64,000 bases of DNA from a virus (lineage: Duplodnaviria > Heunggongvirae > Uroviricota > Caudoviricetes). The notes beneath the pieces are model-generated. The model did no database searches. It worked only from the letters and a program-made list of their open reading frames with translations, and was not told the DNA's origin. Position numbers and translations under genes: made by a program. Location of the stretch: positions 1-64,000 of IMG/VR virus record IMGVR_UViG_2903405734_000002; one strand, given 5' to 3'. Numbering within the stretch: the first letter of the stretch is position 1; every line of letters begins with the position of its first letter. Shown piece by piece: positions 22,682 through 62,512 of the stretch.

Positions 22682-22683
22682 AT

Positions 22684-24952: not shown

Positions 24953-25029
24953 GGCCCCGTATCACAATCGGTTAGTGGAGCGTCCTCATAAGGCGTAACG
25001 TCTCGGTTCGAGTCCGAGCGGGGCCACCA
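24953..25029 (+). tRNA. tRNA-Ile2-like (anticodon CAT, lysidine type)
   Basis: Acceptor GGCCCCG/CGGGGCC resembles E. coli ileX/ileY (GGCCCCT). Anticodon loop ctCATaa. CCA encoded. Strong terminator hairpin follows at 25046-25097. Confidence 0.75.
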
Positions 25030-27146: not shown

Positions 27147-27514
27147 GGGGCTGACCTGGTTTCGACAGGGTATAGGTGCCTGAATTGCGAGTCGTGTGTT
27201 ATGTATCACACGTAAATCCATGCATAAAACAAATAATCGCTAACGACGAAAGCTTCGCTGTCGCCGCCTAATAAGCGGTAGACAGCCTCTCCACTCAGGG
27301 TTTCTCAGGGCCTAGAGAACATGGAGAGTCAAGTCTCCCTGAGATCGCGTGGCGGCTTCTGTCAGTAGCCAAGACGCTAAACGTAACCTGACTCGCCGGA
27401 GGAATGATTTGCCCATCAATCATCTTCCTGGCTAAAAAAATGATGAGGCTATGCTCGTAGATGTTCAACGCACTGGTGTTCTGGACGCGGGTTCGATTCC
27501 CGCCAGCTCCACCA
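27147..27514 (+). ncRNA. ssrA: tmRNA (SsrA), tag peptide ANDESFAVAA
   Basis: 5' GGGGCTGAcctggtttcgac. Resume codon gct then AACGACGAAAGCTTCGCTGTCGCCGCCTAA. 3' tRNA-like end GGACGCGGGTTCGATTCCCGCCAGCTCCACCA. 368 nt. Confidence 0.95.
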
Positions 27515-29809: not shown

Positions 29810-30268
29810 ATGAAGGCAAAAGCAGCTATTGTAAAAAACCGAAAGGCTGAGTTCGACTATTTTTTGAAAGAGCGTATTGAAGCTGGCCTGTCTCTAGAAG
29901 GGTGGGAGGTTAAGTCTCTCAGGGAGGGGAAAGTAAACCTCCAGGAAAGCTATGTGATGAATATCGGCGGCAGGATGATGTTGGTAGGCTGCCATATTAC
30001 TCCAATGATCCAGGCCAGCACTCATGCTCATTGTGATCCGGTCAGAAACAAGCCGCTCCTTCTGAACAAGAAAGAGATTGACCACTTGATTGGATCTGTT
30101 GAGCGCAAAGGCTTTACTTGCATTCCGGTTTCGCTGTATTTTAGCGGAGGAAAAGTTAAGCTTGAGATTGCACTTGCGGAAGGCAAAAAGCAGCACGATA
30201 AGCGAGCAACAGAGAAGGCCAAGGATATGAAGCGCGAAGCAGATAAGGCCATCAAGGGGCTTCGCTAG
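29810..30268 (+). CDS. smpB: SsrA-binding protein SmpB
   Basis: KAEFDYFLKERIEAGLSLEGWEVKSLREGKVNLQESYV...GKKQHDKR closely matches SmpB. Confidence 0.9.
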   Translation: MKAKAAIVKNRKAEFDYFLKERIEAGLSLEGWEVKSLREGKVNLQESYVMNIGGRMMLVGCHITPMIQASTHAHCDPVRNKPLLLNKKEIDHLIGSVERKGFTCIPVSLYFSGGKVKLEIALAEGKKQHDKRATEKAKDMKREADKAIKGLR

Positions 30269-31411: not shown

Positions 31412-32977
31412 ATGTTTCGGCATCAAGTAAAGCTTCCTCATGGCTATTTTGCTAAATCTAAAAATGAATATTCTAATTGGAGATTTAGTTGGTGGAGAGA
31501 GGCTATTCAAAACTCTGTTGATGCTGGGGCAACCAAGATTGAGCTTTTTATAAAGACCATGGATGATGGTAAATTAATGCTCATTTGCAGAGATAATGGC
31601 TCAGGAATGAGCAAATCCACTTTGCAAGATGTCTTTCTGGCTCTTGGTGAAACCGACAAAGGCACCGATAAAACAGGTGGTTTTGGATATGCTAAGGTCA
31701 TTATTCTTTTTGCTCACGACAGCTATACCATCAAAACCCAGGATAACATTGTCACTGGGATGGGCGGATCATATGACATTGATGAGCTGACAGAGTTTTT
31801 TAATGGAACTGAAATCTCAGTGGTCATGGATGTAGAGGGTTCTTTTAATGAGAGCTCTTTCAGAAGACAGCTCATGGAATTTGTTGATTCATCATCGTTC
31901 GACAAAAATGTTCACCTCTACCTGGACAATAAGGAGCTTAAAAAACCAGAAAAATCATATGCTTATCATGTTGACAGCAAGATCGGCAAGATCAGCTTTA
32001 ATGATGGAGAGCCAGGTGACTCATCAAGATTAATGATTAGGGTAAATGGGCTGGTGATGTTCACACATTCCGTTTATCTCAATGAGCAGTCATCATCTTT
32101 TTATGGCATTCTTGACCTCGACAAGCCATCAGTTGAAATCCTGACGAGTAATCGCGATGGTCTGAAATATGAATACTCGCAAACACTGAATCAGATCGTT
32201 TCTGTTTTGAGCCAGGAAAGAAGCAGCCTCAAATGCAAAGACTTGATTGATGTTACCTTCAACAGGATGTATGACTATGAGTACGAAAGAAGCCTGTCCT
32301 CATCTCGCCAACTGAGTGGCGGCTCTGCATATGCAGGATCACTTAGTGAAGTTGGCATCAAGGGGATGCCATTACATGGTCAAAATCCAGATTTTTCAGG
32401 AAATCCATTTCAAAAATTTAAAGCAAGGGCTGACGCACTCGTAGATCAGGTGGCGCTCCGATTTGGAAAAATCGATCAGTCTCAGTACCCTAACAATTTC
32501 AAGGTAAAAACTCATGAGATGAATGCTGAAAATCCAAAGAAAAAATACTTTGAGATTATCAGACTTCTAGAGCTGAAAAGAGTCCAAAAGCTGGCATGGA
32601 CATGGTTTTTTATCATAGAGGAAATTCTAAAAACAGAGTGGGCTGAGACACATAGCATCAAGTGGGTTAAGAACAGGGCCACTCGATTCGACATGCCAAT
32701 CAATATAGGCTTCATCTTTAGTGATGAGGCAAATGGCTTAAAGGTAAGAGATAAGGATGGCTATCATATATTGATTAACGTTGCATCTCTTGATGATGAC
32801 TATGACTTCGAGGACATCCTTGATATTGCTACTCATGAAGTAACACATCTGGCTGTATCCAATCACAGCGAAGGCTTTTGTTCAGAAGAAATGGCGCTAA
32901 GAAAAAGCCTTAGAAAAAGGATTAAGGCTCGACAGCTTGAGCGTCTTTGTCTCGAAAAGGTTCGAGAGATCTTCTAA
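31412..32977 (+). CDS. GHKL-type ATPase (Bergerat fold) with C-terminal HExxH zincin-like motif
   Basis: N-box EAIQNSVDAGA, G1 RDNGSGM, G2 TDKTGGFGYAKV. C-terminal IATHEVTHLAV. RBS AGGAGA. A hairpin lies immediately after the stop. Confidence 0.65.
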   Translation: MFRHQVKLPHGYFAKSKNEYSNWRFSWWREAIQNSVDAGATKIELFIKTMDDGKLMLICRDNGSGMSKSTLQDVFLALGETDKGTDKTGGFGYAKVIILFAHDSYTIKTQDNIVTGMGGSYDIDELTEFFNGTEISVVMDVEGSFNESSFRRQLMEFVDSSSFDKNVHLYLDNKELKKPEKSYAYHVDSKIGKISFNDGEPGDSSRLMIRVNGLVMFTHSVYLNEQSSSFYGILDLDKPSVEILTSNRDGLKYEYSQTLNQIVSVLSQERSSLKCKDLIDVTFNRMYDYEYERSLSSSRQLSGGSAYAGSLSEVGIKGMPLHGQNPDFSGNPFQKFKARADALVDQVALRFGKIDQSQYPNNFKVKTHEMNAENPKKKYFEIIRLLELKRVQKLAWTWFFIIEEILKTEWAETHSIKWVKNRATRFDMPINIGFIFSDEANGLKVRDKDGYHILINVASLDDDYDFEDILDIATHEVTHLAVSNHSEGFCSEEMALRKSLRKRIKARQLERLCLEKVREIF

Positions 32978-33402: not shown

Positions 33403-33561
33403 TGACTGGCTGTTTTTTGCCCAGAAGAATCCCCTATTCATTATTTTTAAAAAAACCAAACAACCTTATATTTTGGCTTGACGAATATAATATTTTAAGT
33501 ATAATTAACTCCATCAAAGCAAAACAACAACTAGCAAAAAATAATAGATAGGGTGAAAATT

Positions 33562-34002
33562 ATGAGTAATTCAATGAAAGTATCCGGCCTGGTAAAAGCG
33601 CTCATCAAATCTTCTGTTGAAACCAACGTGTTTCTCGTTAATGGCGTAAGGCTGTCTGGCTGCATTGAGAAAGCCGATGCTTCGACTCTCATTCTTGTTC
33701 GTGATGGCAAAAAACAAGCCATCTATCGACATGCTATTGCCACCATTGTTCCTGTAGGGCAATTCAGCAAAGAAGCATTTGACTCTGCCGCTGATTGCGC
33801 AGAGCAAAGCACTGGCGAGAGCCTGCTCAGTGGCCTTGTAAAAACTGGTGACAACATCAATGCATTCATGCTGAATGGAATTCGCTTGTCTGGTGTTCTT
33901 CTGTGTGAAGATGATGAAATGCTCCTGATGTCAGTGCCAGAAAAAGATCAGTTCCAATCCGTAATGAAGCGAGCTATCGCCACTCTTTCTGCTTTGGATT
34001 AA
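33562..34002 (+). CDS. tandem double-Hfq (Sm-like) domain protein
   Basis: Domain 1 VFLVNGVRLSGCIEKADASTLILVRDGKKQAIYRHAIATIVP, compare Hfq [23 protein letters not shown]...YKHAISTVVP. Domain 2 AFMLNGIRLSGVLLCEDDEMLLMS...MKRAIATL. Confidence 0.8.
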   Translation: MSNSMKVSGLVKALIKSSVETNVFLVNGVRLSGCIEKADASTLILVRDGKKQAIYRHAIATIVPVGQFSKEAFDSAADCAEQSTGESLLSGLVKTGDNINAFMLNGIRLSGVLLCEDDEMLLMSVPEKDQFQSVMKRAIATLSALD

Positions 34003-34092
34003 TCGAATTTTCCATTATGGAGACTCTTTGGTTTGAGTCTCTATGGTCAGGAGTCCTGGCATTGCCAGAATTAAGGTTTCGGAGTACAAAAT

Positions 34093-34527
34093 ATGACCAA
34101 TAAAAAGATTTTTATGATTGAGGCGCTGATTAAGTCAGAGCAGGCTGTGGATGTGTTTCTCGTAAATGGAATCTGCCTAAAAGGGCGTCTGGTTGCACAG
34201 ACCAGTGGATACTTGGTGTTGTCCGATTTCATGGCGAAGAAAGCGCCTCAAATCATCTATCGACACGCTATCTCTACCATTGTTCCCATTGGTGCGTTCG
34301 ATGTTGAGTCTGCACTGGTTGATCCTATGCTGCCAGAGTGCAAGCAAGGAGAGGCCCTTCTTGACGCGATTATGAGCCAAAATCTGAGCACAAGTGTGTT
34401 TATGATGAATGGCATTCGCCTGGTGGGCATCCTTGTCAGTCAGACAGAAGAATCCTTCCTTATGAAGGTGTTCAACGGCTGCCAGGAGATCCGAAAAGCA
34501 GCAATTGCAACCATTGTGCCGTCATAA
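34093..34527 (+). CDS. tandem double-Hfq (Sm-like) domain protein, paralogue
   Basis: Domain 1 VFLVNGICLKGRLVAQTSGYLVLSD...IIYRHAISTIVP. Domain 2 VFMMNGIRLVGILVSQTEESFLMKV...RKAAIATIVP. RBS GGAG. Confidence 0.8.
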   Translation: MTNKKIFMIEALIKSEQAVDVFLVNGICLKGRLVAQTSGYLVLSDFMAKKAPQIIYRHAISTIVPIGAFDVESALVDPMLPECKQGEALLDAIMSQNLSTSVFMMNGIRLVGILVSQTEESFLMKVFNGCQEIRKAAIATIVPS

Positions 34528-35093: not shown

Positions 35094-36623
35094 CTACTCA
35101 TCATCATCTATGGCTGTTCTTAGGTTGCTTGCGAAAAGGTCTGACTCGATTTGATCAACGTTTTCAAAGTCGAACTTGATGATCCCTTCATCTTGGTATG
35201 CATCTTGATTATGAAGGTCTTTGTCATAATCATCATCTGGGTAATCATCACTATCAAGATGAGCTGACGAGAAGATGTCTCCTGGCAGCTCGCTATCATC
35301 AGGAAGATCTCCCTCCAACCCTTGCAGCAGCTCCTTCATCTCACTTTCATGATCAACAGTAGCTTGATGGGGCAGGGGGCTATCATCCATTATCTCATCC
35401 CCAAGGCCAATGATGTCCGCAATCCTGGCTTTTTCTTCGTCATCCATTGCTTGGGCTGTTGGATGATCTGCCGGAAGAATGTCAATGATTTCAGGAAGTA
35501 GTTCGGCCACTATCGCGACAGAAGCAGCTGCGGTGCCAGTACCAATAGCAGCTTGGGCGACTTCATTTTTTTCTTCCTTGATGATTGCCTTCGGAGGAGT
35601 TTTGTATGATGACTCCTCATCCTCTCTTTCCTCTTTGCTTGTTCTGATAACTCTATGTTCTTTATTGGTTTTTTTATGCTCTTTCTGCTCTGATTGCTCT
35701 TTTTTGATGAGCTCCATCATTGCCTTGTTCATGTCGTCATTATCAAAGACGCCTGGTGCCTTTTGTTGTTTTTTTTCTGAGATTTTAAAGTTACTATATT
35801 TTTCATCAAAATATTCTTTGTCTGTCAGCAATCTAGCAAAAACATCCGACTCATCTTCTGCCTCATCAGATACAGACTCTTCAAGCTCAGAGCGATTGAT
35901 CAGGATGGCTAGGCTATCCTCAATCTGCTGATCTTCTTTGGCGAATTTTTCATTAATTGATATGGAAAGGTCTTTATTTATAAATTCCACCGCATCTTTT
36001 TTGGAGAAGTATTGGGAAGAATTCTCGGTATCGCTTTGAGCTACCAATCGGCTTGTTTGTATTAAATCATCAAACTCTTCTTTGAGGTATTTAATTTCTT
36101 TTGCCGTGGGCGTTAGGGCATAGACGAGCTCAACATAAAGATTGATAAATTTCAAAGCATCTGTTTCTGCGCCTTTCAAGTAATTGACCAGGGCTGGCTT
36201 TAAAAAGTCCTCATCATAGTCTCGGTTAAATCCCTTTACTGATAACAGCCCTGATGCAGCAAGAAGAATTGCTCTTTTTGTTGCCTTGTGGTTTCCCAGG
36301 ACATGGAGCCTGTCCATTAACCACTTGGCCCTGTATCCCATGATTAAAAGAACAGAAACTATGCCAATAAAAATAATGCTGTTATACGAGGCGCTTAGGC
36401 AAAGGGTGCATACATAAAGTGAAAGAGCAATGATGCCCAATGGAAGTCTGTTTACCGAAGACCACTCGGGGAACGTCTCGGACAAACGCCTTCTCTTTAA
36501 CATGCAATCGATCAGAAACTTATCCAGAAGAGGAAGATCTGTAATCGGGAAAAGGCGCTTGTTGATTACCTTAATGGCCTCCCTCGATTTCTGTAGATGC
36601 TCATATTCTTTGTGATTCTTCAT
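35094..36623 (-). CDS. membrane-anchored acidic low-complexity protein (509 aa)
   Basis: N-terminal TM helices. Long Glu/Asp/Lys-rich C-terminal region. Confidence 0.55.
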   Translation of the reverse strand: MKNHKEYEHLQKSREAIKVINKRLFPITDLPLLDKFLIDCMLKRRRLSETFPEWSSVNRLPLGIIALSLYVCTLCLSASYNSIIFIGIVSVLLIMGYRAKWLMDRLHVLGNHKATKRAILLAASGLLSVKGFNRDYDEDFLKPALVNYLKGAETDALKFINLYVELVYALTPTAKEIKYLKEEFDDLIQTSRLVAQSDTENSSQYFSKKDAVEFINKDLSISINEKFAKEDQQIEDSLAILINRSELEESVSDEAEDESDVFARLLTDKEYFDEKYSNFKISEKKQQKAPGVFDNDDMNKAMMELIKKEQSEQKEHKKTNKEHRVIRTSKEEREDEESSYKTPPKAIIKEEKNEVAQAAIGTGTAAASVAIVAELLPEIIDILPADHPTAQAMDDEEKARIADIIGLGDEIMDDSPLPHQATVDHESEMKELLQGLEGDLPDDSELPGDIFSSAHLDSDDYPDDDYDKDLHNQDAYQDEGIIKFDFENVDQIESDLFASNLRTAIDDDE

Positions 36624-39867: not shown

Positions 39868-39896
39868 ACAGAAAGGGGCCTGCCAAGCAGGCCCTA
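39866..39896. terminator. Rho-independent terminator (serves the minus-strand operon ending at 39909)
   Basis: ggggcctgc-caa-gcaggccc with a T-run on the minus strand. Confidence 0.6.
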
Positions 39897-39908: not shown

Positions 39909-40544
39909 TCAGAAGGTGGATTTACACACCATAAATCCCATGTCAGAGATTTTACAAGGAACCCCATTCACAGATACTGGGACATCGTTACCATCAATAC
40001 TCAAGCCAATAGCAGTAACCTCACCAGTTTTCAGATTTGCTGACATTGTTAGGATGCCAACAATACTGCTTTTTTCATCTTCATCGAGATCATCATTGCA
40101 ATCCAGCTCGTCTGATTCCAGATAGAAGCGTTTGCTGAAATGTATCAGCTCGCCTTCTTTTACAGACTCCTTTCCATCTGACTCGGTAACTGAATCATCA
40201 TTCGGGATATCGATATTCTGGAAAATCTGCTCGAAATAATTGGATGCTCGCTTCTCTATTATTGAGATAAACTCTAAGCCAGAAATAAGGTCAGCACTGA
40301 TTTGTCCTTTTTTGCCAGACTCTCGATGTGCATCCCGAATGATTTCGGCCAGGGTCTCAACTATCTCAACCTTTATATCCAGATCAATATCACTCAGAGC
40401 GCTTCCAACCCCAGAACGATCACTGAGATTGGCTAACACACCACGAGCAGCACGGTGAGCCCAATCTTTTGGTGGTACTCCAGCTTCGCCATTGGTATCG
40501 TAAGGGTATTTATCGCCATTAATCAAATTGCTGTTAATTTCCAT
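39909..40544 (-). CDS. hypothetical protein (211 aa), last gene of the helicase-associated operon
   Basis: ORF, same strand as and downstream of the 40646 gene. Confidence 0.55.
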   Translation of the reverse strand: MEINSNLINGDKYPYDTNGEAGVPPKDWAHRAARGVLANLSDRSGVGSALSDIDLDIKVEIVETLAEIIRDAHRESGKKGQISADLISGLEFISIIEKRASNYFEQIFQNIDIPNDDSVTESDGKESVKEGELIHFSKRFYLESDELDCNDDLDEDEKSSIVGILTMSANLKTGEVTAIGLSIDGNDVPVSVNGVPCKISDMGFMVCKSTF

Positions 40545-40645
40545 TATATGCGTCCAGAATCATCTGTTTAGTGCAGACATAATATCATGAAAAATAAATA
40601 AAGCAAGAAAAGCCTCGCATGAGCGAGGCTTTTAGGTGTTATTTC

Positions 40646-41050
40646 TTACTGATTGTTATCAGTAGATGCCACTTCTTCTGGCTTCTCTGCCGTCATTTCG
40701 TACTTTTCATTCAGGCAGGTAAACACTTCGTGAGCCAGCACCACTGTCGGAATGGTCAGGCCACCGATGTAGTCGATAGCATCACCTGTGTCCAGGGTGA
40801 AGGTAATTGGCAGCCCCTCGCGGTTGTCATTATTGCTATCATCAAAGGTGATGATCGCAGGAATGACTGGAAGCTGTGCATCAAACTCAAGATCCTTGTC
40901 GGCCATCATCTGGGTTGCATAGCGAAGGCCCAGTCTTGCCCAGTTGGTTGCAACATCGTCTTCGGAGTGTTCATTGAGCTCAATGGACACATTAATCTGA
41001 GAGCGCCCATCATCAGAACGCACTTCATCAAAAACAAGCCTTACGCTCAT
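40646..41050 (-). CDS. hypothetical protein (134 aa)
   Basis: ORF. 9-bp gap to the upstream gene. Confidence 0.55.
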   Translation of the reverse strand: MSVRLVFDEVRSDDGRSQINVSIELNEHSEDDVATNWARLGLRYATQMMADKDLEFDAQLPVIPAIITFDDSNNDNREGLPITFTLDTGDAIDYIGGLTIPTVVLAHEVFTCLNEKYEMTAEKPEEVASTDNNQ

Positions 41051-41059
41051 AAAACCTCC

Positions 41060-41608
41060 TTAAATCCGGTTTGCCAGCAAAACGATATTGTTCACGGTGT
41101 TGCCGCTGATATAAACCAGAGCAGGCAAGATCTGGTGTGAGGCTTCGCTGGTGTTGCCGAGGTGTTCCTTGGCTTCTCGCGGAACCCACTTTGGCATCGC
41201 GCTCTCGCTCAAGACAAGATAAGCCTCAATTTCGGCAGACTCATCGCTAGGCTCAATATCCTCATCATCTTCATCATCCCATTCGTCATCCTCATTGAGG
41301 GGAGGGGTGATGGATGCAGTAACCATGACAGCACCTTGAAAAAGACAGGGATAGATAACCTCAAAGCCCTTCGAGAAGATGTTGTAAACACAAACACCCT
41401 GGCTCTCATTCTTGCCATCCTCTACATCCAAAGAATCGGATGCAGCGGCCATAGAAATGTTCAGGTCAAAGGCGATGTACTCGACACAGCGAGTAACAAA
41501 GAGATTTTTTCGCTCTCCATTCTCGTTATTATCTGCAAGGCAGACAATCGAGCAATCAAGCTCACTCCTCAGTTCTGGCACCAAAAAAAGCTGGCGAATT
41601 CGGCTCAT
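41060..41608 (-). CDS. hypothetical acidic protein (182 aa)
   Basis: ORF with an acidic stretch DDEWDDEDDEDIEPSDE. Confidence 0.55.
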   Translation of the reverse strand: MSRIRQLFLVPELRSELDCSIVCLADNNENGERKNLFVTRCVEYIAFDLNISMAAASDSLDVEDGKNESQGVCVYNIFSKGFEVIYPCLFQGAVMVTASITPPLNEDDEWDDEDDEDIEPSDESAEIEAYLVLSESAMPKWVPREAKEHLGNTSEASHQILPALVYISGNTVNNIVLLANRI

Positions 41609-41669
41609 AAAACAACCTCTCGTTGCGTTGAGAGGGGCCTTCTTACCGATAGGCCCCTATGGGTGATGA

Positions 41670-42773
41670 TTACTTGCTGGAGCCAAAGAAAGCGCGGCGG
41701 TGATCACTATCTGCTGACTCGGGCATTTCAATGGTCAGCGATTGCTTCTTGTTGTTGCTATCGAACACCATTGTGTTGAGGAAGCGCTGAATTGAGCGGT
41801 CGCTTTCCTCTTGCTCTCCGTAATGAGAGCTCGCTTCGGTCAGGATGTTATACACATCGAACTGAGTCAGGTGGCTTCCAAATGACTCAGCCGCCTTTTT
41901 ATCTCCGAACAGATCTTCCTTGTAGTATTTATGAAGATTCAATTCAGGGCTCACTTGGTAGGCCATCGATCTCAGCTTGGAGGCGTCTGTCGGTTCGATC
42001 TTCTTGTCTTCGGCCCGAGCAAGCAACAGTGCGTTGGTATCCATGGCTTGGCGAACACTAGCCCGAGTTGAGCGCATATCCTTAAAGCGATCGTTCAGGA
42101 GGCTGTTAAAGCGCGGTTTCAGCTGCGTTGCAGTGATCGAAAGATTGCGCTCCCAGTCGTTGATAAGCGGCACGGCATAGGTGACCAGCGGTGCATTGGC
42201 AACCATCCCATTAGAGCAGATCAAGCGCATCACTTCGAGACTGGTAGTGATCTTGTCTGAGAAAGGAGACCAGCGATAAATCAGTCGGTTTTCAAAGGCA
42301 CCACCCTCTCCAAGGCTCTCCACTTCCATTTGGAAAGATTCAGCCTCCCCACCAAGGAAGATACCATTTGAACCAAACCCTCGATAACGATTGAAGATGG
42401 AGCGGCGAGACTGCTGTAAGCGCTCGTTCACACCCTCATGGAATTTGTCACCAGTAACCTTGACCTCGCTGTAGCGCTTCACGCCAATGCGGTCTGAAAG
42501 CTCGCTTACGCCTGTTTCTGAGTGAATAAACCCACGATACTCAGAGCCTCGATAGTCCACCATTTGCCCATCAAAAAACACGTAAGTGCCACCATTAAAG
42601 TGAGCCTGGATCACGGAAGCCTCAGTGCTCATGCACATCTGACTTTCCTTGGCTTCAACAGGGAACTGATGCACAAAGCGATCATCGATAATCAAAGTTA
42701 ACTGGAAAGCACCTGCGGCTTGCAAAAAGTCCAACTTAACTTCAACATCTGCATTGCGAATTACTTCCAACAT
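41670..42773 (-). CDS. hypothetical protein (367 aa), possible PD-(D/E)xK-like segment
   Basis: ORF. D-x9-EVK arrangement (DRIGVKRYSEVK) noted; weak. Confidence 0.55.
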   Translation of the reverse strand: MLEVIRNADVEVKLDFLQAAGAFQLTLIIDDRFVHQFPVEAKESQMCMSTEASVIQAHFNGGTYVFFDGQMVDYRGSEYRGFIHSETGVSELSDRIGVKRYSEVKVTGDKFHEGVNERLQQSRRSIFNRYRGFGSNGIFLGGEAESFQMEVESLGEGGAFENRLIYRWSPFSDKITTSLEVMRLICSNGMVANAPLVTYAVPLINDWERNLSITATQLKPRFNSLLNDRFKDMRSTRASVRQAMDTNALLLARAEDKKIEPTDASKLRSMAYQVSPELNLHKYYKEDLFGDKKAAESFGSHLTQFDVYNILTEASSHYGEQEESDRSIQRFLNTMVFDSNNKKQSLTIEMPESADSDHRRAFFGSSK

Positions 42774-42874
42774 AAATAAGCCTCACTGGTGAATTGGCTG
42801 CCCAACTGATAAATTAATTATACCTAAAATAAATAAAATGGCAATCCTATGACTGCCAATTTATTTAAAAAATA

Positions 42875-44077
42875 TTATGCCGCAACAGGCTCGGTAGCAT
42901 CGTTTGGCACCAGTAAGTCAGCGTCATCAATCTCTGACTTGAAATCTGCCAAATTGATCAGCGGAATATCATGCTCTTTCACGCCTTCTCTGTAAAATGT
43001 CTTGATGCTGTTTCGGTAAACAAGGCCATTGTTGATAATGAACTTAAACATCTTGGACAAATCACGAAGATTGTTCAGATCAGTCTCTCGATGGAGGAAT
43101 CCCATAAGCCAAGAGATAGATGTGGTGGCCCTCATATTCATCGGCGTTTTGAATCGGCACTTCTCAGATATTTTCTGCAAATTGACCATTCCGGTCTTCT
43201 TGATAATTGATGGAATATCAAGAAAATCAGTCTCGGCGTAACCGTACAATTTACCAATCGTTTTGGCTGCTCGAATTGCAAACTCAATAGTCGGATATGA
43301 TGGGTTTGTCTCTGATGCAATAGAGTACACCATCCGAACTTCATCTTTATTGCTTGTACCAAACTCCTTGTCTGCCGACAGAACAGGGGAGTAAACCACG
43401 ATCTGCTCCAAATCTGGGTAAGCAGCATTCGGTTTGTAAGCAAGCACACAGCCAGTGGATAGCGGCAGGTATGCGCTGGAAACTGTTTCATGAAGTTCCT
43501 CGGCGCTATCCGTGTTAACAGAGCTAATTTCCTTGGCTGTTTTCTGTTTTTGGAAGCGATCAAGCCCCATTTTTGACAGTTTGACGTAGTTCACCATCTG
43601 AATGAAGTAAGAGCCATCATTCGTGATGTTAAACATGGAACGGGTATCTTCTGCGTTTTTCACCCAAAAAATTTCCTGACCATTGATCCAGACGTTTTCA
43701 GCATCCTTGATAGCATCGCCAAGTTTTACGATAACCTTGGAGAAGTTGGACTGCCAATTCTCAGCTGCTTGAAATGCACCGAGTCGGCGGTTAAACATCT
43801 GGATTTCAACACCAATGATGTCAGAGCCGTAGTAGTTGAGTGAAGCCAATCGAGGAGAAGAAAACTCCTTCATAACGTTAAACTTGAAAAAGCCCTGGCT
43901 TACACTTCTGTGGATCTTTATTTTTGTTACCTTGTGATCTCGATAAGAGACCTGATCTTCTGCGGTAGACAAATACGGCTCTCCGTTTCGGTGAGTGGTA
44001 ACATACAAATAATCACCAGTAACCTTCAAAAGGTAAACGTAAACTGAGCGCAGCTTATTAATGTCAAATTGCAGCAT
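42875..44077 (-). CDS. hypothetical protein (400 aa)
   Basis: ORF. Confidence 0.55.
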   Translation of the reverse strand: MLQFDINKLRSVYVYLLKVTGDYLYVTTHRNGEPYLSTAEDQVSYRDHKVTKIKIHRSVSQGFFKFNVMKEFSSPRLASLNYYGSDIIGVEIQMFNRRLGAFQAAENWQSNFSKVIVKLGDAIKDAENVWINGQEIFWVKNAEDTRSMFNITNDGSYFIQMVNYVKLSKMGLDRFQKQKTAKEISSVNTDSAEELHETVSSAYLPLSTGCVLAYKPNAAYPDLEQIVVYSPVLSADKEFGTSNKDEVRMVYSIASETNPSYPTIEFAIRAAKTIGKLYGYAETDFLDIPSIIKKTGMVNLQKISEKCRFKTPMNMRATTSISWLMGFLHRETDLNNLRDLSKMFKFIINNGLVYRNSIKTFYREGVKEHDIPLINLADFKSEIDDADLLVPNDATEPVAA

Positions 44078-44244
44078 TTGGAAACCCTTATCAAGAGTAG
44101 TTCAATTGGAATACAGGAATGATATTAAAAAAACAAAGAACCGTCAATATTTATTTTTCATAATAATAAGTATTGGCGGCAGTGTGGAAGCGCCATGAAC
44201 AACCCCACCCAAAAAGGGTGGGGCCTCCCACAAAAGGCATGATT

Positions 44245-45468
44245 TTAGGCCGCTTGGCGAACCTCGCTATCATCCTGAGACTCAGTGGTGTCAATGTCGA
44301 TCCCCATGCGGTAAATGGACATCTTGCCCCATGTAGGATCTTCACCAGACAGCAATTCCTCATGCCATTCGTTCTTTTTGATATAGATCAGGCGCTCATA
44401 CTTTGTCAGACCAACAACATCCTTGGCGACCACTGAATCGACCAGGGGATTAATCAGCTCCCAAACAGCACAGGGGCTATCAGGGCGAATGCCACGGCCA
44501 ATAAATTGCTTTTTCTCTTGTTCAGAGTTGAAGTTGCGAGCAGTAAAGATATCAGTGATGTTTTTAGCATCAATGCCCTCACCAATTTTTTGGCAGTTTA
44601 CGATGAATTGGATCTTGCCAGATGACAGATTATCTAGCGCTTCATCAAGCTCTGCCTCAGTGCTTTTGCTATCAAGCTTCGCAGCTCGAAGGCGCAAGCC
44701 GCGAGTCAGGAATCGGTACACCCGTTTCACCTCGGCCTCGGTACGCATAAAGATGATCGTGTTGCCCATATGGGTGTGATACTGCTCAAGTACAGCACAG
44801 GTAAGCTCTGACTTGTCATTCTTGCCTGTGTCGATAATCGAGTTAACGCCAACAGAAGCGGTAAACCCGAGTTGAGCAGCTTCTTCTTCGGTGATGGCGG
44901 TAACAACCGCTTCAAACTTCAACAGAAGCCCATCAGCGCGAGTGTCATCAGCAGTAAGACCAATCATTGGTCTGGTTGTAAGATCATCCAGAAGCTCCTG
45001 AATAGAGCTCATAGCTTCATGGTGGCATTCATCAAGGATGGTCAGATCCCACCCCTTTTCGATCATGTACTGCGGGATCTCTGAGAATGCAGAGTGAACA
45101 TGCAGCTCAATAGAATCGACATCGGAAAATGTCTCCATTGCCTGGCGATTCAGCCGATGCTTGTTTGATATGAAAAGAATTCGCATCTTTTCGTCATCCT
45201 TGAGTCCAAGGACATTGCGAACCCGAGTAGATACGACCAGTAGCTTTGCCATCAGTGTTTTGCCAGTGCCAGTAGGCGACTTGAGCAACAAGCGATTAAG
45301 ACCACTCTCCAAATGATCTGCTATCTTGTTCACACCATTGGCCTGATAAAAACGAGGCGTATCAGATACGGACTCAAAAAGGTGCAAGGGGGCGGCATAG
45401 CGGTCGTTGTTGATGATCACGGGGTTCATGTCTTTGTCCTCAATGGAAAGTTGAATGTCTCGAACCAA
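44245..45468 (-). CDS. compact SF2 DExH-box helicase (407 aa)
   Basis: Motif I SPTGTGKT, motif II DECHH, motif VI QFIGRGIRP. Both RecA-like domains present. Confidence 0.8.
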   Translation of the reverse strand: MVRDIQLSIEDKDMNPVIINNDRYAAPLHLFESVSDTPRFYQANGVNKIADHLESGLNRLLLKSPTGTGKTLMAKLLVVSTRVRNVLGLKDDEKMRILFISNKHRLNRQAMETFSDVDSIELHVHSAFSEIPQYMIEKGWDLTILDECHHEAMSSIQELLDDLTTRPMIGLTADDTRADGLLLKFEAVVTAITEEEAAQLGFTASVGVNSIIDTGKNDKSELTCAVLEQYHTHMGNTIIFMRTEAEVKRVYRFLTRGLRLRAAKLDSKSTEAELDEALDNLSSGKIQFIVNCQKIGEGIDAKNITDIFTARNFNSEQEKKQFIGRGIRPDSPCAVWELINPLVDSVVAKDVVGLTKYERLIYIKKNEWHEELLSGEDPTWGKMSIYRMGIDIDTTESQDDSEVRQAA

Positions 45469-45601
45469 TGAGGCTTATTATACATAAAAATAAATACTAC
45501 GCAAGAATTCAGACTCAAACTCATGGATATTTATTATTTGACATAATAAACGTTGAATGATATGATTTTGAGAATTAAAGGTGACTCAGGAGTAGCACGG
45601 C

Positions 45602-47112: not shown

Positions 47113-47901
47113 ATGAAAATAAGGAAAAGCAGCCTGGTATTGTGCATGATTGCAATTGGGTTTTCTTTCTCTTCACTTGCAGAAAGCAGATATGAATTCT
47201 CAATTCCTGTAGAAATGTCAGCAGAAGAAGATGACAGTGGCCGAGAGTGGAGAGAGTTTTTTGCTAATGCCAATACAATCCTTAAAAGCAAACTACCCCC
47301 GAATGGCAAAGTTAACTTTTATGAATATAATAGCGGCCTTGGAATTAGCAAGGATGAAGGATGGAAAAGAGGTTCATGGTACATAGCATTTGGAGGAGGA
47401 ATAAAGTTAACATCGGCTGATTTTCCTAAATCAAAAAAGGGAACAAAAATATTTGGTAAGATTAGTGGCGTGGGTCACGAACTAGCAGATGTTGATTTTT
47501 TAAGTGGCATAGAGGTTTTAAATTATGGCTTGGAATTATCATCAAGCAAAATTGAGAATTTAAGAGGTCTTAGAGATCTAAAGGATTCTACTCGTGACAT
47601 TATGTTTTTAAATAGCAATAAACTTACATCGCTTGATGGACTTCAAAATCTCAAAATTACCAGAGGATTGTATATATACAACAATCCAAGTTTGACTGAT
47701 ATATCAGCCATTGAGAATCTGGCTGGTCACGGCCTTGTGGCGCTTGATGATGTTGCGCAATACAAGAAAAAACCGAGAAAGGGTAGCGCCTTTTGCAATA
47801 GTATAAGAGATAAAAAAATATATGCAAAAGTAAGAAAAGATAGCCCGAAAGGAAATTATATCGATAGCCCATTTCTTACGGTGGATCAGGTTTGCATGTA
47901 A
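47113..47901 (+). CDS. secreted LRR-like protein, tandem family member 1
   Basis: Signal peptide. RYEFSIPVEMSAEEDDSGREWREFF. LRR segment ...NNPSLTDISAIENL. C-terminal KKKPRKGSAFCNSIRDKKIYAK...VDQVCM. Confidence 0.7.
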   Translation: MKIRKSSLVLCMIAIGFSFSSLAESRYEFSIPVEMSAEEDDSGREWREFFANANTILKSKLPPNGKVNFYEYNSGLGISKDEGWKRGSWYIAFGGGIKLTSADFPKSKKGTKIFGKISGVGHELADVDFLSGIEVLNYGLELSSSKIENLRGLRDLKDSTRDIMFLNSNKLTSLDGLQNLKITRGLYIYNNPSLTDISAIENLAGHGLVALDDVAQYKKKPRKGSAFCNSIRDKKIYAKVRKDSPKGNYIDSPFLTVDQVCM

Positions 47902-47927
47902 AAACGCACAAAAACAGAGAACAAAAT

Positions 47928-48701
47928 ATGAAAATAACAAAAAACAAGCCTCTTTCTTCACTCCTGGCAGTCCTTATTGTTTTTGTATCTGGTAGGGTTT
48001 ATTCAGCAGACAAATATGAATTCAAAATACCAGTAGAGATGAGTGCATCAGAAAAGCCGAAAGAAAATGGCGAAGAATGGAGGCAATTCTTTCTTTCTGC
48101 AAGTAAAAAATTTAAGCATAGGCAACCAAGGCCGAGCGGAGAAATAGGTGCTATTGGTATGGGCTCGGAGCAACTATGGATGTCTGGAAATTGGTCTGCA
48201 AGCATCCCCTCTGTTGGCCTTATGGATAGCGAGTTACCAAGAGGTACGCTTGGCCTAAGCACTATTGGAAACATCGAGCTTCCAAACAACAAATTAACCA
48301 ATGTGGATTTCATGGCTGGGGTTACTGTATCAACTAGAAACATAGAACTACAAGACAATATGCTGACAAATTTAAAAGGACTGTCAAGCCTCAAAATTCA
48401 AAGAGATTATTTTCACATTGATGGCAACATGCTTACAAGCTTAAATGGCCTTGAAAATTTAGAGCAAATAAGAACTCTTCATTTTTATAATAATCCAAGC
48501 CTGACAGACATATCAGCAATAAGCAACATTCAAAGGCCAGGTGGTGTTGTTTATATGGATAATCCAAAACAATATAAAAAGAAGCCTAAGTTAGGAAGTC
48601 CATTTTGCAATGGAATAAGAGATAAAAAGCTATGGGCACATGCTGGAACAATATTTAATAAAGGGCCAGAGTTAAAGGCTGGAGATGTTTGCGAACAATA
48701 A
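47928..48701 (+). CDS. secreted LRR-like protein, tandem family member 2
   Basis: MKITKNKPLSSLLAVLIVFVSG. KYEFKIPVEMSASEK..EEWRQFF. NNPSLTDISAISNI. C-terminal KKKPKLGSPFCNGIRDKKLWA...GDVCEQ. Confidence 0.7.
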   Translation: MKITKNKPLSSLLAVLIVFVSGRVYSADKYEFKIPVEMSASEKPKENGEEWRQFFLSASKKFKHRQPRPSGEIGAIGMGSEQLWMSGNWSASIPSVGLMDSELPRGTLGLSTIGNIELPNNKLTNVDFMAGVTVSTRNIELQDNMLTNLKGLSSLKIQRDYFHIDGNMLTSLNGLENLEQIRTLHFYNNPSLTDISAISNIQRPGGVVYMDNPKQYKKKPKLGSPFCNGIRDKKLWAHAGTIFNKGPELKAGDVCEQ

Positions 48702-48755
48702 TAATATCGCCATGCGTAAGTATTCGCTCTCTATGCAGCTAAAGGAATTACAACA

Positions 48756-49535
48756 ATGAAGAGATTAAAATTTGCAAAAGGTCTTTTTGTCTTAATTATT
48801 TGTTTGCCAACAAGTGCAATGTTAGCAACAGAAAAAAATGAAAGATATGAATTTAACATTCCTATTGCAATGGAAAAAACAGCAGATGAAAGCGGAAGGG
48901 AGTGGAAGGAGTTTATTATTTCTGCAAACTCAATTTTTAAGGATAGAATCAAGTATGGAAGCGTGTCATATTCGGGCATTAATGATGAAGAAAAATGGAA
49001 AACAGGAATGTGGCGTCTTAGCTTTCCAGGTGGAGTGAAATTAAAAAACAGTGAGCTACCAAAATCATTAATGGGAACAAAAATAATAGGTGATTTAATT
49101 TTATCAAATCAAGAACTAGCCGATGTTGATTTTTTGAGCGGCGTTGAAGAGGCTAGATACAACCTTTATATTGATGGAAATAAAATAAACAATCTTAAAG
49201 GGATGAGAAATCTTAAAAAGGTGCATTATGATGCGCTCATGTTAAGAAACAACAATCTTACAACTCTTGATGGGCTTCAAAGCCTAAGAGACATAAGGCA
49301 AATAACATTACATGGAAACCCATCTCTCTATGATATTTCAGCATTAAAAAATATTGAGTCTTATGGCACGGTATATTTTGACAAAATAGATCAATACAAG
49401 ATTAAGCCACGGAAAGGAAGTCCTTTTTGCAATAGCATAAAAAACAAAAAAGTATATGCAAAAGAAAGAGTTGTAGACAAAAAAGGAAATTATGTTGATG
49501 GGCCATTTCTAACAGAAGATCAGATCTGCATGTAA
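48756..49535 (+). CDS. secreted LRR-like protein, tandem family member 3
   Basis: Signal peptide. RYEFNIPIAMEKTADESGREWKEFI. GNPSLYDISALKNI. C-terminal IKPRKGSPFCNSIKNKKVYAK...EDQICM. Confidence 0.7.
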   Translation: MKRLKFAKGLFVLIICLPTSAMLATEKNERYEFNIPIAMEKTADESGREWKEFIISANSIFKDRIKYGSVSYSGINDEEKWKTGMWRLSFPGGVKLKNSELPKSLMGTKIIGDLILSNQELADVDFLSGVEEARYNLYIDGNKINNLKGMRNLKKVHYDALMLRNNNLTTLDGLQSLRDIRQITLHGNPSLYDISALKNIESYGTVYFDKIDQYKIKPRKGSPFCNSIKNKKVYAKERVVDKKGNYVDGPFLTEDQICM

Positions 49536-49549
49536 GGAAAGTATAAAAA

Positions 49550-50341
49550 ATGAATCTAAAAATGAAATCAACAACAATGAAATATTTAACTGCATGTCTA
49601 CCTTTCCTTTTGTGTTTTCCAGCAAGCGAAATATCAGCCGCAGGTGGGGGTGCGCGATATGAGTTTAAAATCCCTGTTGCAATGGAAAAAACAGCAGATG
49701 AAAGCGGAAGGGAATGGAGGGATTTTTTTCTATCTGCAAAGTCAAAATTTAAAGATAGGACTCAATATTCTTTCTTTCAATATAGCGATGTTAGTGATGA
49801 GGAATGGAAGAGAGGAGCGTGGTCGGTTAGTTTCGCAGGCGGACTTATATCAAATAGTGACCTGCCAAAATCATCACTTGGAACCAAGACGCTGGGTAGC
49901 TTCTCTATGTCACACCAAAGATTTACTAATGTTGATTTTTTAAGTGGCGTTGAAGAGTTAAGACGCGATCTGTATCTCGATGGAAATCAAATAGAAAATT
50001 TAAAAGGGATGAGAAATATAAAAAAGGCTTATTATCACAATTTAGTCCTAAGAAAAAACAAGCTAAAAAGCCTTGATGGGCTAGAAAACCTAAGACAGAT
50101 AAGACGCCTTGATGTGCATGGTAATCCAGAACTTGTAGACATCTCTGCAATAAAAAATATCGAATCACATGGAGTGGTTTATGTAGATGACATAAGGCAA
50201 TACAAAATAAAGCCACCAAAGGGCAGTCCTTTTTGCAATAGCATAAAAAACAGGAAAGTATTCGCAAGAGAACAGCTTTTAAATAAAAAAGGTGAGTATG
50301 TTGATGGGCAAGAGTTGACAGAAAGCCAAATCTGCATGTGA
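49550..50341 (+). CDS. secreted LRR-like protein, tandem family member 4
   Basis: Signal peptide. RYEFKIPVAMEKTADESGREWRDFF. GNPELVDISAIKNI. C-terminal IKPPKGSPFCNSIKNRKVFAR...ESQICM. Confidence 0.7.
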   Translation: MNLKMKSTTMKYLTACLPFLLCFPASEISAAGGGARYEFKIPVAMEKTADESGREWRDFFLSAKSKFKDRTQYSFFQYSDVSDEEWKRGAWSVSFAGGLISNSDLPKSSLGTKTLGSFSMSHQRFTNVDFLSGVEELRRDLYLDGNQIENLKGMRNIKKAYYHNLVLRKNKLKSLDGLENLRQIRRLDVHGNPELVDISAIKNIESHGVVYVDDIRQYKIKPPKGSPFCNSIKNRKVFAREQLLNKKGEYVDGQELTESQICM

Positions 50342-50433
50342 TCTTATAGGGTTGCTATGTTATGATGGATGAGTCCAGTAGACTACATTGCTTGTTTTTG
50401 ATACAATTAAATAAATAAAAAAAAGAGATAGTC

Positions 50434-50748
50434 ATGTCAAGAGAGCAAGAGAAGATTTACATTGATGATGTTCACCCGCTTGTAGAAAGAATTACCTTGA
50501 TTTGCAAGCAATCTGGCATGCCTATGTTTATGACATTTCAAGATGGAAGCGATAGCTTTAGGACTAGCTGTATCAACCAGGAAAACAGCCAGTTTGAAAA
50601 GCTAAAGCTTCACATGTTTGTAAATGAAACATGGTCTATTGATCAGCTTCTTAGCATGATTATTGAGGATGCAAAGAAAAATGGGCATGACTCATTGTAC
50701 CTAAAGGCAATGGGCATACCCAATAAGAACCAGCTTGCAAACAAGTGA
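50434..50748 (+). CDS. hypothetical protein (104 aa)
   Basis: ORF. Confidence 0.45.
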   Translation: MSREQEKIYIDDVHPLVERITLICKQSGMPMFMTFQDGSDSFRTSCINQENSQFEKLKLHMFVNETWSIDQLLSMIIEDAKKNGHDSLYLKAMGIPNKNQLANK

Positions 50749-54392: not shown

Positions 54393-55817
54393 TTAGATTG
54401 TATTTCGCCTGCCTGGAAGTACCTCTCCCAAGTTTTTGGCACCGACAAACACAGGGGCAATGAAGACTAGCTTCATGAGCTTGTTCTCGGCCCCGTAGTG
54501 CTGGCCTCTCCAGTGTGGCCCACGCCAGTGAGGTGACACCTTCCGCTTATCTGTTGGCGAGTCATTGAGGTATTGTTTGACCGATGCCTGATCACTCTCG
54601 TTTGAGTGGAAGTGAAGCCTGGTAAAGGACGGTAATGCTGCCTCTTTTTGGATTTTGACACCAAGTTTTTTGGGGTTTGTTTTGTTGATCGGCGGCATTG
54701 GCCCCTGATCTACAACAGTTGAAACAAACTCTTTCCTGGCATAGTTGCTGTTAACAAAGAGCAAGATTGACGCAGCATATCGAACCAGCGCGATTGTGTC
54801 TTGTGAGCGCCGATCATCTTCATACTCCATGAGCTCAACGCCAGATTCTGCCTCCATCATTAGGGCAAGCATGTTTTTGTCGATCTCGTAATCATCGAGC
54901 AAGGCGCTTGTGATCGAGTCGATTAGTGATCTCTCAAGGTCTTTGATTAGAACGTTTATGAACATGGTGGCATCATCAAAGTAGCGATCACCCTCATGCG
55001 GCTTGCCATTGAAGTAGAAGCAAATCCTTGTGAATGGGGTTTCTTCTGTGATACCAGCAGACTCAATCATTTTAGGGGAGTAGTGTCTTGTGGCCCCACT
55101 ATGAGCCTCATGATCATCCCTGAATATCGTTATCGTCTCAAGATCGTGCCAGCCAGTTGCTGCATTAAATAGGCGAAGGCCGCTATCTGCCGGAACCTCT
55201 ATCAGGGTCATTGCCCTGGTAGGAATAACCATTTTAGAGGGAACCTTATCAGTGATCTTGGTAATGCTCATGAGATCAGATACGGTCTTGGATACCTTGA
55301 AGTGATCCATGCACAGAGACTTCTGGCCTACTATCTTCAATTCAGCAAGCACGGTTGCTGGACTTCCCCAAAAGTCATTTATCGTCTTAAGCATCGCTGG
55401 ATTGCCATGCATCTCAACAAGGGCATCAGCTATCGCTTTCGCTTCATTTGTAACGATGTCGATTGATCTTCCTTCCAGGAAAATCCCGCTCAGCATGAGG
55501 ATGTCCATTGCCACATGAAACGGCGATTGAAACGAAAATAGCCCCATGCCAAAAACGGTTGGCAACGGGATCAGACCTGCAAATCGCTCTGATGCTGTTA
55601 CTTTGTTTTTAAATGGAGTGGTGTTGTCATAGAGCTTTGCCTTCTTGAAAACCTGCTCATTGAAGTAATCTCTGTTCTTGAGCATCATTTCGTAATGCAG
55701 CGCCATTGTCTGCGTAATTACTTTTTTCTTGGCAAGCTCCCTGATCTTGTCAGAAACAAACTTTTCATTCGAATAGTTACTAAAAACAACACCCAGATTA
55801 TTCATCTTGCTCACCAT
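54393..55817 (-). CDS. hypothetical protein (about 475 aa)
   Basis: Long ORF. The annotated N-terminal extension to 56090 overlaps the CpxP-like gene and a terminator hairpin (55894-55920), so the start was moved to MVSKMNNLG. Confidence 0.55.
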   Translation of the reverse strand: MVSKMNNLGVVFSNYSNEKFVSDKIRELAKKKVITQTMALHYEMMLKNRDYFNEQVFKKAKLYDNTTPFKNKVTASERFAGLIPLPTVFGMGLFSFQSPFHVAMDILMLSGIFLEGRSIDIVTNEAKAIADALVEMHGNPAMLKTINDFWGSPATVLAELKIVGQKSLCMDHFKVSKTVSDLMSITKITDKVPSKMVIPTRAMTLIEVPADSGLRLFNAATGWHDLETITIFRDDHEAHSGATRHYSPKMIESAGITEETPFTRICFYFNGKPHEGDRYFDDATMFINVLIKDLERSLIDSITSALLDDYEIDKNMLALMMEAESGVELMEYEDDRRSQDTIALVRYAASILLFVNSNYARKEFVSTVVDQGPMPPINKTNPKKLGVKIQKEAALPSFTRLHFHSNESDQASVKQYLNDSPTDKRKVSPHWRGPHWRGQHYGAENKLMKLVFIAPVFVGAKNLGEVLPGRRNTI

Positions 55818-55939
55818 TTCGATAGAAGTGAAGGCATTATACACAAAACCTAATAAGACTAACAAGAGAAGTATAAGGAGTGTTTTGCATACAAAAAGCC
55901 CATCTTGAGATGGGCCTTGTTGGATAGTTGTTTTTTTCT

Positions 55940-62510: not shown

Positions 62511-62512
62511 AG

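Follow-up and report, generated by a model that had tools for sequence, protein, structure and literature searches.

A five-gene helicase and DUF932-like cassette in a 64-kb viral DNA stretch: a candidate module for DNA transactions in large mobile elements and huge phages

The subject of this work is a cassette of five minus-strand genes (genes 1-5, 40646-45429) in a DNA stretch of 64,000 nucleotides, positions 1 to 64,000 of the IMG/VR virus record IMGVR_UViG_2903405734_000002. This whole stretch is called the window in the following. Gene 1 codes for a compact superfamily 2 (SF2) DExH helicase, gene 2 for a member of an uncharacterised protein family, gene 3 for a divergent DUF932-like protein, and genes 4 and 5 for small acidic proteins. 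We propose that the five genes are one transcription unit. In our favoured reading, to which we give a little less than an even chance, the cassette is a DNA-transaction module of large mobile elements or huge phages. Such a module most likely serves the replication, recombination, repair or DNA-linked gene expression of its carrier rather than host immunity. We prefer it to host immunity because the helicase gene and genes 2 and 3 are conserved as a triad on viral contigs of 135-350 kb and because relatives of the helicase are situated in phage replication modules; furthermore, the cassette diverges in step with its neighbours in the lineage of the window. In the libraries and the literature searched, no described system corresponds to the cassette. 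An earlier reading of the same DNA (the original prediction) had seen here a six-gene operon and a candidate novel conflict or defence module.

Conservation of the gene set

Related loci were gathered from exact-protein contexts, from one genome per GTDB species, from IMG/VR and from JGI metagenomes, and the profiles of genes 1, 2 and 3 were mapped onto them. This yielded 27 non-redundant loci (the window excluded) with a full-length gene 3 relative, 20 of them with at least 4 kb of upstream sequence. The triad was found in the order helicase, gene 2, gene 3 and on the same strand in 19 of these 20 informative loci. The exception is L035, in which gene 2 is present and no helicase was found within 10 kb; a member of the helicase family (P0091) is recorded on a contig as long as that of L035. 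The pairwise identities of the three genes are correlated (Pearson coefficients of 0.77-0.85 for 91 locus pairs), and from this correlation we conclude that the triad is inherited as a unit. The predicted co-conservation of the helicase with the ORFans downstream of it thus holds for genes 1-5, which are kept together. On the viral contig L036 gene 2 is missing and a TnpB gene has taken its place; this gene (L036 8569-9675, between the helicase and gene 3) codes for a protein 31% identical to the TnpB of the window.

In Planctomycetes a related helicase gene lies directly upstream of a very distant DUF932 gene in 8 of 13 informative loci. The identity of these distant DUF932 proteins from Pirellulaceae and other Planctomycetes (L011-L024, L055, L060) is about 23% over 160 residues. 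Consequently, the association of helicase and DUF932 protein is much older and wider than the cassette described here.

Loci were termed compact when the helicase start and the gene 3 end were at most 4.6 kb apart, which applied to 13 loci. Gene 4 and/or gene 5 were also present in ten of these. The ten include the relatives of the window, the isolates Psychromonas sp. SP041 and Natronocella acetinitrilica, a contig of a Chloroflexota metagenome-assembled genome (MAG) and contigs of 654 kb, 1.06 Mb and 1.54 Mb. The other three compact loci (L033, L034 and L049) group with the phage-type copies (26-29% identity in gene 3), and neither gene 4 nor gene 5 was detected in them. In the dispersed form, represented by six loci, the triad is interrupted by other genes, and genes 4 and 5 are lacking. 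Viral contigs of IMG/VR (up to 350 kb) carry this form, as do the phage-like contigs L027 (330 kb) and L028. Triad genes were located on IMG/VR viral contigs of 135-350 kb (L029-L035). In L028 two genes lie between the helicase and gene 2, namely a Phage_T4_rIIB gene and a gene for a 747-aa protein with a weak HATPase_c_3 match, which we read as rIIA-like. SLT, PTPS, GIY-YIG and Metallophos genes are found in the vicinity on L027 and L028, and the neighbours on viral contigs include genes for a phosphoribosyl pyrophosphate synthetase and a homing-endonuclease-like protein.

The cassette is sporadic across phyla (Psychromonas, Natronocella, Castellaniella, Methylococcales and a Chloroflexota MAG). 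On the MAG contigs of Castellaniella and Methylococcales full-length gene 3 relatives are present and the upstream part is cut by the contig end. Only four full-length gene 3 matches were obtained among 185,579 species genomes. Relatives of genes 2 and 3 were detected neither in PLSDB (72,556 plasmid records; megablast and tblastn) nor in INPHARED (50,697 phage records), for which a phage-type gene 3 query was included as well. An origin from a plasmid or a known phage was therefore rejected.

The neighbourhood of the cassette is collinear between the window and L001. Genes 1-3 are 64-75% identical in the two, LigA is 70% and CreA 71% identical. Since the divergence of the cassette matches that of its neighbours and its position is kept, the cassette is stably inherited and not a recent insertion. 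We also considered an island integrated at the transfer-messenger RNA (tmRNA) gene of the window (27147-27514). This was rejected, as general scans found no integrase and the region is collinear with L001.

Beyond the cassette, further ORFan families recur within 10-20 kb of cassettes on unrelated contigs, namely the 521-aa HATPase_c_3 protein and proteins of 108, 184 and 201 aa. The cassette therefore seems to be part of a larger shared gene set. In the window the 521-aa HATPase_c_3 protein is encoded at 31412-32977. A homologue with 29% identity (E = 1e-52) is encoded about 6 kb from the cassette on L038 (1.06 Mb), and the protein may be a rIIA-like companion of the cassette.

Gene layout and limits of the transcription unit

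The region comprises the following features.

45477-45504, minus strand: promoter-like TTGCGT-N16-TATAAT 5' of the helicase gene, a consensus match read from the sequence alone
44245-45429, minus strand: gene 1, compact SF2 DExH helicase/translocase of 394 aa (Pfam, PHROG, motifs)
42875-44077, minus strand: gene 2, 400 aa, uncharacterised family (profile searches, predicted structure)
41670-42773, minus strand: gene 3, 367 aa, divergent DUF932-like protein (PF06067 matches across the family)
41060-41608, minus strand: gene 4, 182 aa, acidic, with a D/E-rich stretch (local jackhmmer homologues, isoelectric point)
40646-41050, minus strand: gene 5, 134 aa, acidic, final gene of the conserved cassette (homologues in compact cassettes, isoelectric point)
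40608-40633, minus strand: terminator-like hairpin, an 11-bp stem with six GC pairs and a 4-nt loop, followed by a T-rich tract
39909-40544, minus strand: gene 6, acidic ORFan of 211 aa without homologue in the fetched loci
39876-39894: second terminator-like hairpin, 3' of gene 6
50419-50745, plus strand: 108-aa open reading frame (ORF), a possible companion or regulator linked by position only

All six minus-strand ORFs of the original prediction (39909-45600) are present at the coordinates given, and the gaps between successive genes are short, as had been stated (167, 101, 61, 9 and 101 nt, the 9 nt parting genes 4 and 5). The unit of six genes was not borne out. A hairpin splits gene 5, which stops at 40646, from gene 6, which starts at 40544, and conservation ends with gene 5, as only genes 1-5 have homologues elsewhere. 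For these two reasons we confine the unit to five genes, and the hairpin at 40608-40633 likely is the end of the transcription unit of genes 1-5. A promoter-like match for gene 6 (40570-40543) was not accepted, since its -10 box runs into the start codon of that gene. Gene 6 had no homologue in about 60 related loci, whereas genes 1-5 do have them, and at its position L001, a 73%-identical relative, carries a different gene of 120 aa on the opposite strand. Judged by this distribution, gene 6 is a lineage-specific neighbour outside the conserved cassette. Nor is the context AT-rich as supposed: the guanine-plus-cytosine (GC) content is 0.465 in the cassette, 0.428 in the window as a whole and 0.38-0.39 in the flanking DNA.

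Three highly acidic proteins are encoded here instead of the two counted before, with isoelectric points (pI) of 4.1 (gene 4), 4.1 (gene 5) and 4.4 (gene 6). Genes 4 and 5 are fast-evolving, yet have recognisable homologues across the compact cassettes, and the acidity of the proteins at these positions is kept. By local jackhmmer searches, gene 4 homologues were found directly after gene 3 in L001, L003, L005, L009, L025, L026, L037 and L039-L043; gene 4 is restricted to the compact form of the cassette.

In other cassettes the 108-aa ORF recurs as a small gene that points away from the helicase gene and lies about 1 kb upstream of it. The window copy is 46-47% identical to L025 8737-9087 and L038 8718-9059 and 82% identical to its L001 counterpart. 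In the window it has been moved about 5 kb off by CreA and four leucine-rich-repeat (LRR) paralogues. These four tandem paralogues (47113-50341; 262, 269, 259 and 263 aa) are sited between CreA and the 108-aa ORF. They have signal-peptide-like N-termini and a weak leucine-rich-repeat match and share the C-terminal motif ...KPxKGSxFCNxI..K...A....

The helicase

Gene 1 had been described as coding for 407 aa. This length was corrected to 394 aa, with an ATG start at 45429. The TTG codon at 45468 is located only 8 nt past the -10 box of the promoter-like site, which ends at 45477. A GAGGA Shine-Dalgarno sequence (45437-45441) is present upstream of the ATG, and the nearest database homologue (P0001, 98% identical) also has 394 aa. 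Because of the closeness to the promoter-like site, the Shine-Dalgarno sequence and the length of the homologue, a start at the TTG is unlikely and the ATG is preferred.

The helicase motifs named before were found again; in the numbering of the 394-aa protein they are SPTGTGKT (motif I, aa 51-58), DECHH (motif II, aa 133-137) and QFIGRGIRP (motif VI, aa 308-316). In Pfam the protein matched ResIII with 56.8 bits (cut-off 22.5; E = 3e-15), Helicase_C with 42 bits (cut-off 23.5; E = 1e-10) and DEAD with 27.3 bits (cut-off 26). We regard gene 1 as a bona fide SF2 helicase with two predicted RecA-like domains and without an accessory domain.

The top family match of the helicase is phrog_16, 'DNA helicase' (PHROG, E = 3e-39), and 236 members of its family were found. 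The closest helicases of cultured phages are about 25% identical and are sited in replication/recombination modules. One such module consists of a Sak4-like annealing protein, the helicase, a single-stranded DNA-binding protein (SSB), a primase/polymerase and a Holliday junction resolvase; in a second phage a primase/helicase adjoins the related helicase. The comparison with restriction enzymes, PbeA, DpdF, Cas3 and RadD gave motor-domain fragments only, far under the family cut-offs. The NCBIfam restriction models reached 23-65 bits, with cut-offs of 550-800.

Genes 2 and 3

The five partners of the helicase had been taken for proteins without recognisable families. This stands for genes 2, 4, 5 and 6, which match no Pfam, NCBIfam, PHROG or PADLOC family, but not for gene 3. 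The window copy of gene 3 scored 18.0 bits (E = 0.0027) against DUF932 (PF06067), below the gathering threshold of 23 bits. The same family was matched by 17 of 33 gene 3 family members, with a best E value of 4e-6, and a precomputed PF06067 match exists for two gene 3 homologues. Gene 3 is most suitably placed as a divergent branch of the DUF932 superfamily. Within it the residues R183, C186, N188 and G189 (RLxCxNGM) as well as N309, T312, E313 and H317 are invariant, and we propose RLxCxNGM together with TE..H as the sole candidate active or binding site in the module.

A second conserved feature of gene 3 is the tail motif [S/T][D/N]xxxAFFG (SDxxxAFFG), about ten residues or fewer from the C-terminus in a tail that is predicted with low confidence. 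Compact copies and even the most distant phage-type copies have kept the AFFG tail. In phage T4 the proteins gp43, gp55 and gp33 bind the clamp through a C-terminal epitope that is short, hydrophobic/acidic and carried by a flexible linker (PMC2988020), and the layout of the gene 3 tail resembles these clamp-binding C-termini.

It had also been suggested that one of the proteins carries a weak PD-(D/E)xK-like segment (D-x9-EVK) and could be a nuclease. The segment in question is D94-x8-E103-V-K105 of gene 3. E103 occurs in 4 and K105 in 5 of the 33 family members, and in the predicted structure the segment is part of a loop with a predicted local distance difference test (pLDDT) value below 50. 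Thus there is no support for a PD-(D/E)xK nuclease.

The AlphaFold model of gene 2 is confident (pLDDT 83.5, predicted template modelling score 0.80). No relative of the gene 2 or gene 3 model, both confident predictions, was found among the solved structures, and profile or single-sequence searches of the solved-structure sequences with genes 2-6 gave nothing significant. An exhaustive profile search among 1.84 billion proteins identified 224 representatives of the gene 2 family, all of 350-450 aa and without domain fusions. At this depth glycine and aromatic positions alone are conserved and no polar residues. Since the conserved positions are of these kinds only, gene 2 is probably a non-enzymatic partner or adaptor. 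Genes 2 and 3 were also considered as diverged paralogues, as the order of their secondary structure elements is similar. This was rejected because the hhalign probability is only 0.4%.

The window and its replicon

The window has a GC content of 43% and is rich in ORFans; the GC content of Aeromonas is roughly 58-62%. Deposits named Aeromonas veronii (PTH79976 to PTH80036, on a contig of 215,275 bp) contain exact copies of the SmpB, LigA, Fic and pilin-like proteins of the window. Relatives of window proteins bear the names Aeromonas sp. MrichA-1 (contig of 405 kb) and A. media (contig of 107 kb). The window may be a giant phage- or plasmid-like element in Aeromonas, or it may belong to a mislabelled co-isolated organism. 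Its lineage was found neither in the IMG/VR set searched nor among the GTDB species representatives.

Ten full transfer RNA (tRNA) genes and one truncated at the start of the window were found, with 1-251, 22527-23064 and 24953-25029 among their stretches; six of them form an array (Thr, Thr, Asn, Met, Asp, Leu) within 540 bp. A full-length tmRNA gene with the tag ANDESFAVAA is present at 27147-27514, and SmpB is encoded 2.3 kb downstream (29810-30268). Huge phages and some large plasmids have been reported to encode tmRNA, SmpB and tRNAs (PMC7162821). The other genes include those for a NUDIX protein, TnpB, Fic, a Dam-type methylase, an SPFH protein, CreA, a full-length NAD-dependent LigA and a ParB-like helix-turn-helix protein. 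The window is near-devoid of metabolic and ribosomal genes across 64 kb and contains dozens of ORFans. None of ten large window ORFs matched a structural PHROG family, and no phage structural genes were seen in the 64 kb, which are part of a contig of at least 215 kb. With tRNAs, tmRNA, SmpB, methylase, TnpB, Fic, a ParB-like protein, an RNA ligase and ORFans the gene content fits a giant mobile element.

Several further genes of the window were noted. The TnpB (314-1525) is of the IS605 type (OrfB_IS605 and a Cas12f1-like TNB domain) and lies beside tRNA genes. At 17091-22415 three consecutive, unusually large pilin-like proteins (531, 624 and 602 aa) are encoded. The 531-aa and 602-aa proteins have a prepilin-type N-terminal methylation motif and the latter also a bactofilin domain; for the 624-aa protein the source names include prepilin-type cleavage/methylation domain. 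Two adjacent ORFs (33535-34524) are 47% and 42% identical to tandem Hfq-domain genes of L001, and by this homology the replicon has duplicated Hfq-like genes. The 509-aa protein encoded at 35094-36623 has an extremely acidic low-complexity C-terminal half, is 60% identical to its counterpart in L001 and matches no family. A 565-aa ORFan (54393-56090) is 57% identical to a 473-aa L001 protein with a precomputed match to PF26125 (AcrVA2-like, anti-CRISPR); the window copy itself has no Pfam match at E <= 0.01. Finally, at 61302-63256 a gene for an HD and AAA_33 kinase-like protein (402 aa) is situated directly upstream of an RNA ligase gene (PF09414, 247 aa), a pair that resembles phage and bacterial RNA-repair (Pnkp/Rnl-type) modules.

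Possible functions of the cassette

If the cassette is a DNA-transaction module, gene 1 would be its motor, a minimal SF2 DExH helicase/translocase acting on DNA. Genes 2 and 3 would join the helicase in a complex and give it its substrate or target specificity, and the tail of gene 3 could dock to the helicase or to a sliding-clamp-like hub. Genes 4 and 5 would be add-ons of the compact form, candidate regulators or nucleic-acid mimics.

A more far-reaching version is conceivable but rather doubtful. Here the triad would be a three-protein machine core to a clade of uncultured huge phages and giant extrachromosomal elements, and bacteria would have captured the compact form with its two acidic proteins repeatedly for use in conflict, as defence or counter-defence. 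Gene 2 would adopt a new fold, and the DUF932 proteins would for the first time be placed in a functional context.

Several observations weigh against a DNA-transaction module of phages and large elements. No polymerase, primase, SSB or annealing protein was recognised in or beside the window cassette, and neither there nor in the related cassettes does any partner match the annealing protein, SSB, primase/polymerase or resolvase families. The helicase is therefore all that carries the functional analogy to phage replication modules. The roles of the other genes are assigned by association, as the DUF932 and gene 2 families have no described biochemistry; literature searches for DUF932, YfjQ, YafZ and UPF0380 returned no functional data. 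Docking of gene 3 to a clamp would be a lead drawn by analogy. The large contigs count as viral by the IMG/VR classification and a few marker genes, and no capsid or terminase gene was seen in the fetched 20-kb stretches. The genomes of Psychromonas and Natronocella and the contigs of 1.06 and 1.54 Mb carry compact cassettes without phage structural genes within 10 kb, and these copies cannot serve a lytic phage. Lastly, the sporadic spread across phyla is a pattern that is also typical of defence systems.

The DUF932 family is widespread on prophages, integrative and conjugative elements and plasmids. The coupling of one of its branches to a helicase and gene 2 spans bacterial islands and phage genomes of 350 kb and gives a handle on the role of DUF932, by way of complex formation, of the RLxCxNGM and TE..H site and of the AFFG tail. 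It likewise gives access to a conserved, unannotated module of huge phages and to the question whether such a module has been put to a new use in conflict by bacteria.

The defence module of the original prediction can be put more precisely as a new helicase-based anti-phage or anti-plasmid system, in which the helicase would sense foreign DNA or translocate on it, genes 2 and 3 would be sensor and effector, the acidic proteins regulators or antitoxin-like, and the phage copies would be used in competition between viruses. We consider this unlikely. It would agree with the tight co-conservation of five genes, with the sporadic occurrence of the compact cassette across phyla, with the ORFan-rich, island-like surroundings and with a helicase motor like that of type I/IV restriction enzymes and PbeA. 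Defence systems are often phage-borne as well. That no described defence system is matched was confirmed with PADLOC-DB v2, which includes Hachiman, Gabija, Zorya, Druantia, DISARM, Dpd, Pbe and restriction-modification: the helicase gave generic motor-domain matches, genes 2, 3, 4 and 6 none, and gene 5 one at chance level (E = 0.017). Neither Pfam nor PADLOC scans revealed a nuclease, protease, NADase, membrane or other effector domain in the cassette, and the PD-(D/E)xK motif is unconserved. The cassette also failed as a type I, III or IV restriction enzyme, the 394-aa helicase having no fused nuclease and no methylase being encoded in or adjoining the cassette. When ten neighbouring genes from the loci L003 and L005 (both of cultured isolates) and L025 were searched by PADLOC, a single Mrr_N fragment was obtained, and the two isolates showed no defence island around the cassette. 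In Natronocella an Mrr_N fragment and a gene for a Dam-type methylase, both some 6 kb off the cassette, count in favour of defence. The synteny and deep divergence of the triad on many huge viral contigs are those of a core module with vertical inheritance; the stable inheritance with its neighbours in the window lineage and the lack of polar residues conserved at depth in gene 2 speak against a defence system in the same way. The helicase was not found to be a housekeeping gene without co-conserved ORFs, nor was the set assigned to a known system, and the idea is not refuted. What stands of it are co-conservation, the lack of a match to known systems and the sporadic distribution, whereas the missing effector, the position of gene 6 outside the cassette and the triad on viral contigs count against it. 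The layout of a helicase plus ORFans alone is insufficient to call a defence system.

Somewhat less probable still is a module for counter-defence or establishment, with genes 4 and 5 as DNA mimics directed at host restriction or at other DNA-binding defences, and the DUF932 protein and helicase protecting or processing incoming DNA. The low pI of both small proteins, kept across the compact cassettes, would suit such mimics, although acidity alone is weak evidence and neither protein matches ArdA, Ocr or another known anti-defence family. The DUF932/UPF0380 proteins YfjQ and YafZ are encoded in prophage and integrative and conjugative element regions beside anti-restriction genes. Near cassettes or on the same replicon, PcfJ and the homologue of the protein with the AcrVA2-like match are encoded, and the carriers have the look of mobile elements. 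The phage-type versions, however, lack genes 4 and 5, which thus leave the conservation of the triad unexplained. The plasmid records of PLSDB, which are rich in leading-region anti-defence genes, contain no gene 2 or gene 3 relatives either.

An ordinary chromosomal operon of an undescribed ORFan-rich bacterium filed under Aeromonas names, with a housekeeping repair helicase and lineage-specific partners, is very improbable: the full-length NAD-dependent LigA, CreA, SmpB/tmRNA, Hfq homologues and pilin-like proteins nearby, the synteny with L001 and the related cassettes beside FtsH, RNase R, ExoI and SSB on the 1.06 and 1.54 Mb contigs would be in line with it, but the families are rare (236 helicase matches, 224 gene 2 representatives and 4 full-length gene 3 matches), scattered over unrelated phyla and present on viral contigs, and hardly any metabolic or ribosomal genes are found in the 64 kb.

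Comparison with known systems

Among defence proteins, HsdR (EcoAI family), SauUSI-like proteins, PbeA, HamB, DrmA and DpdF share with gene 1 the SF2 DExH/ResIII motor and gave partial matches of 1e-8 to 1e-18. Helicase-containing defence systems are also multi-gene and sporadic, like the cassette. In contrast, the matches span only 80-150 residues of much larger proteins, and the cassette is without the nuclease, methylase, specificity subunit, HamA, DrmB/C or Dpd partners of those systems.

The phrog_16 helicases of Streptococcus phages and of Gordonia phage Gustav belong to the same superfamily as gene 1 and have the same pair of ResIII and Helicase_C domains. Like gene 1, they are borne by phages or mobile elements and head a string of genes on the same strand. 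The helicases of the Streptococcus phages adjoin a Sak4-like annealing protein, SSB and primase, and that of Gustav adjoins a primase/helicase, whereas the partners of the window helicase are the gene 2 family and a DUF932-like protein.

The window resembles huge phages and some large plasmids (PMC7162821) in its tRNA arrays, tmRNA, SmpB and the dominance of ORFans, and viral contigs of 135-350 kb carry the triad. Unlike huge phages, the window has no structural genes in its 64 kb, and related cassettes are also found on contigs beyond any known phage size.

The DUF932/UPF0380 proteins (PF06067), such as YfjQ and YafZ of the E. coli cryptic prophages, are tied to mobile elements as gene 3 is. 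In contrast to DUF932 at large, the proteins of the gene 3 subfamily have about 350-370 aa, carry the AFFG tail and an additional beta-rich domain at the N-terminus, and are always coupled to the helicase and gene 2.

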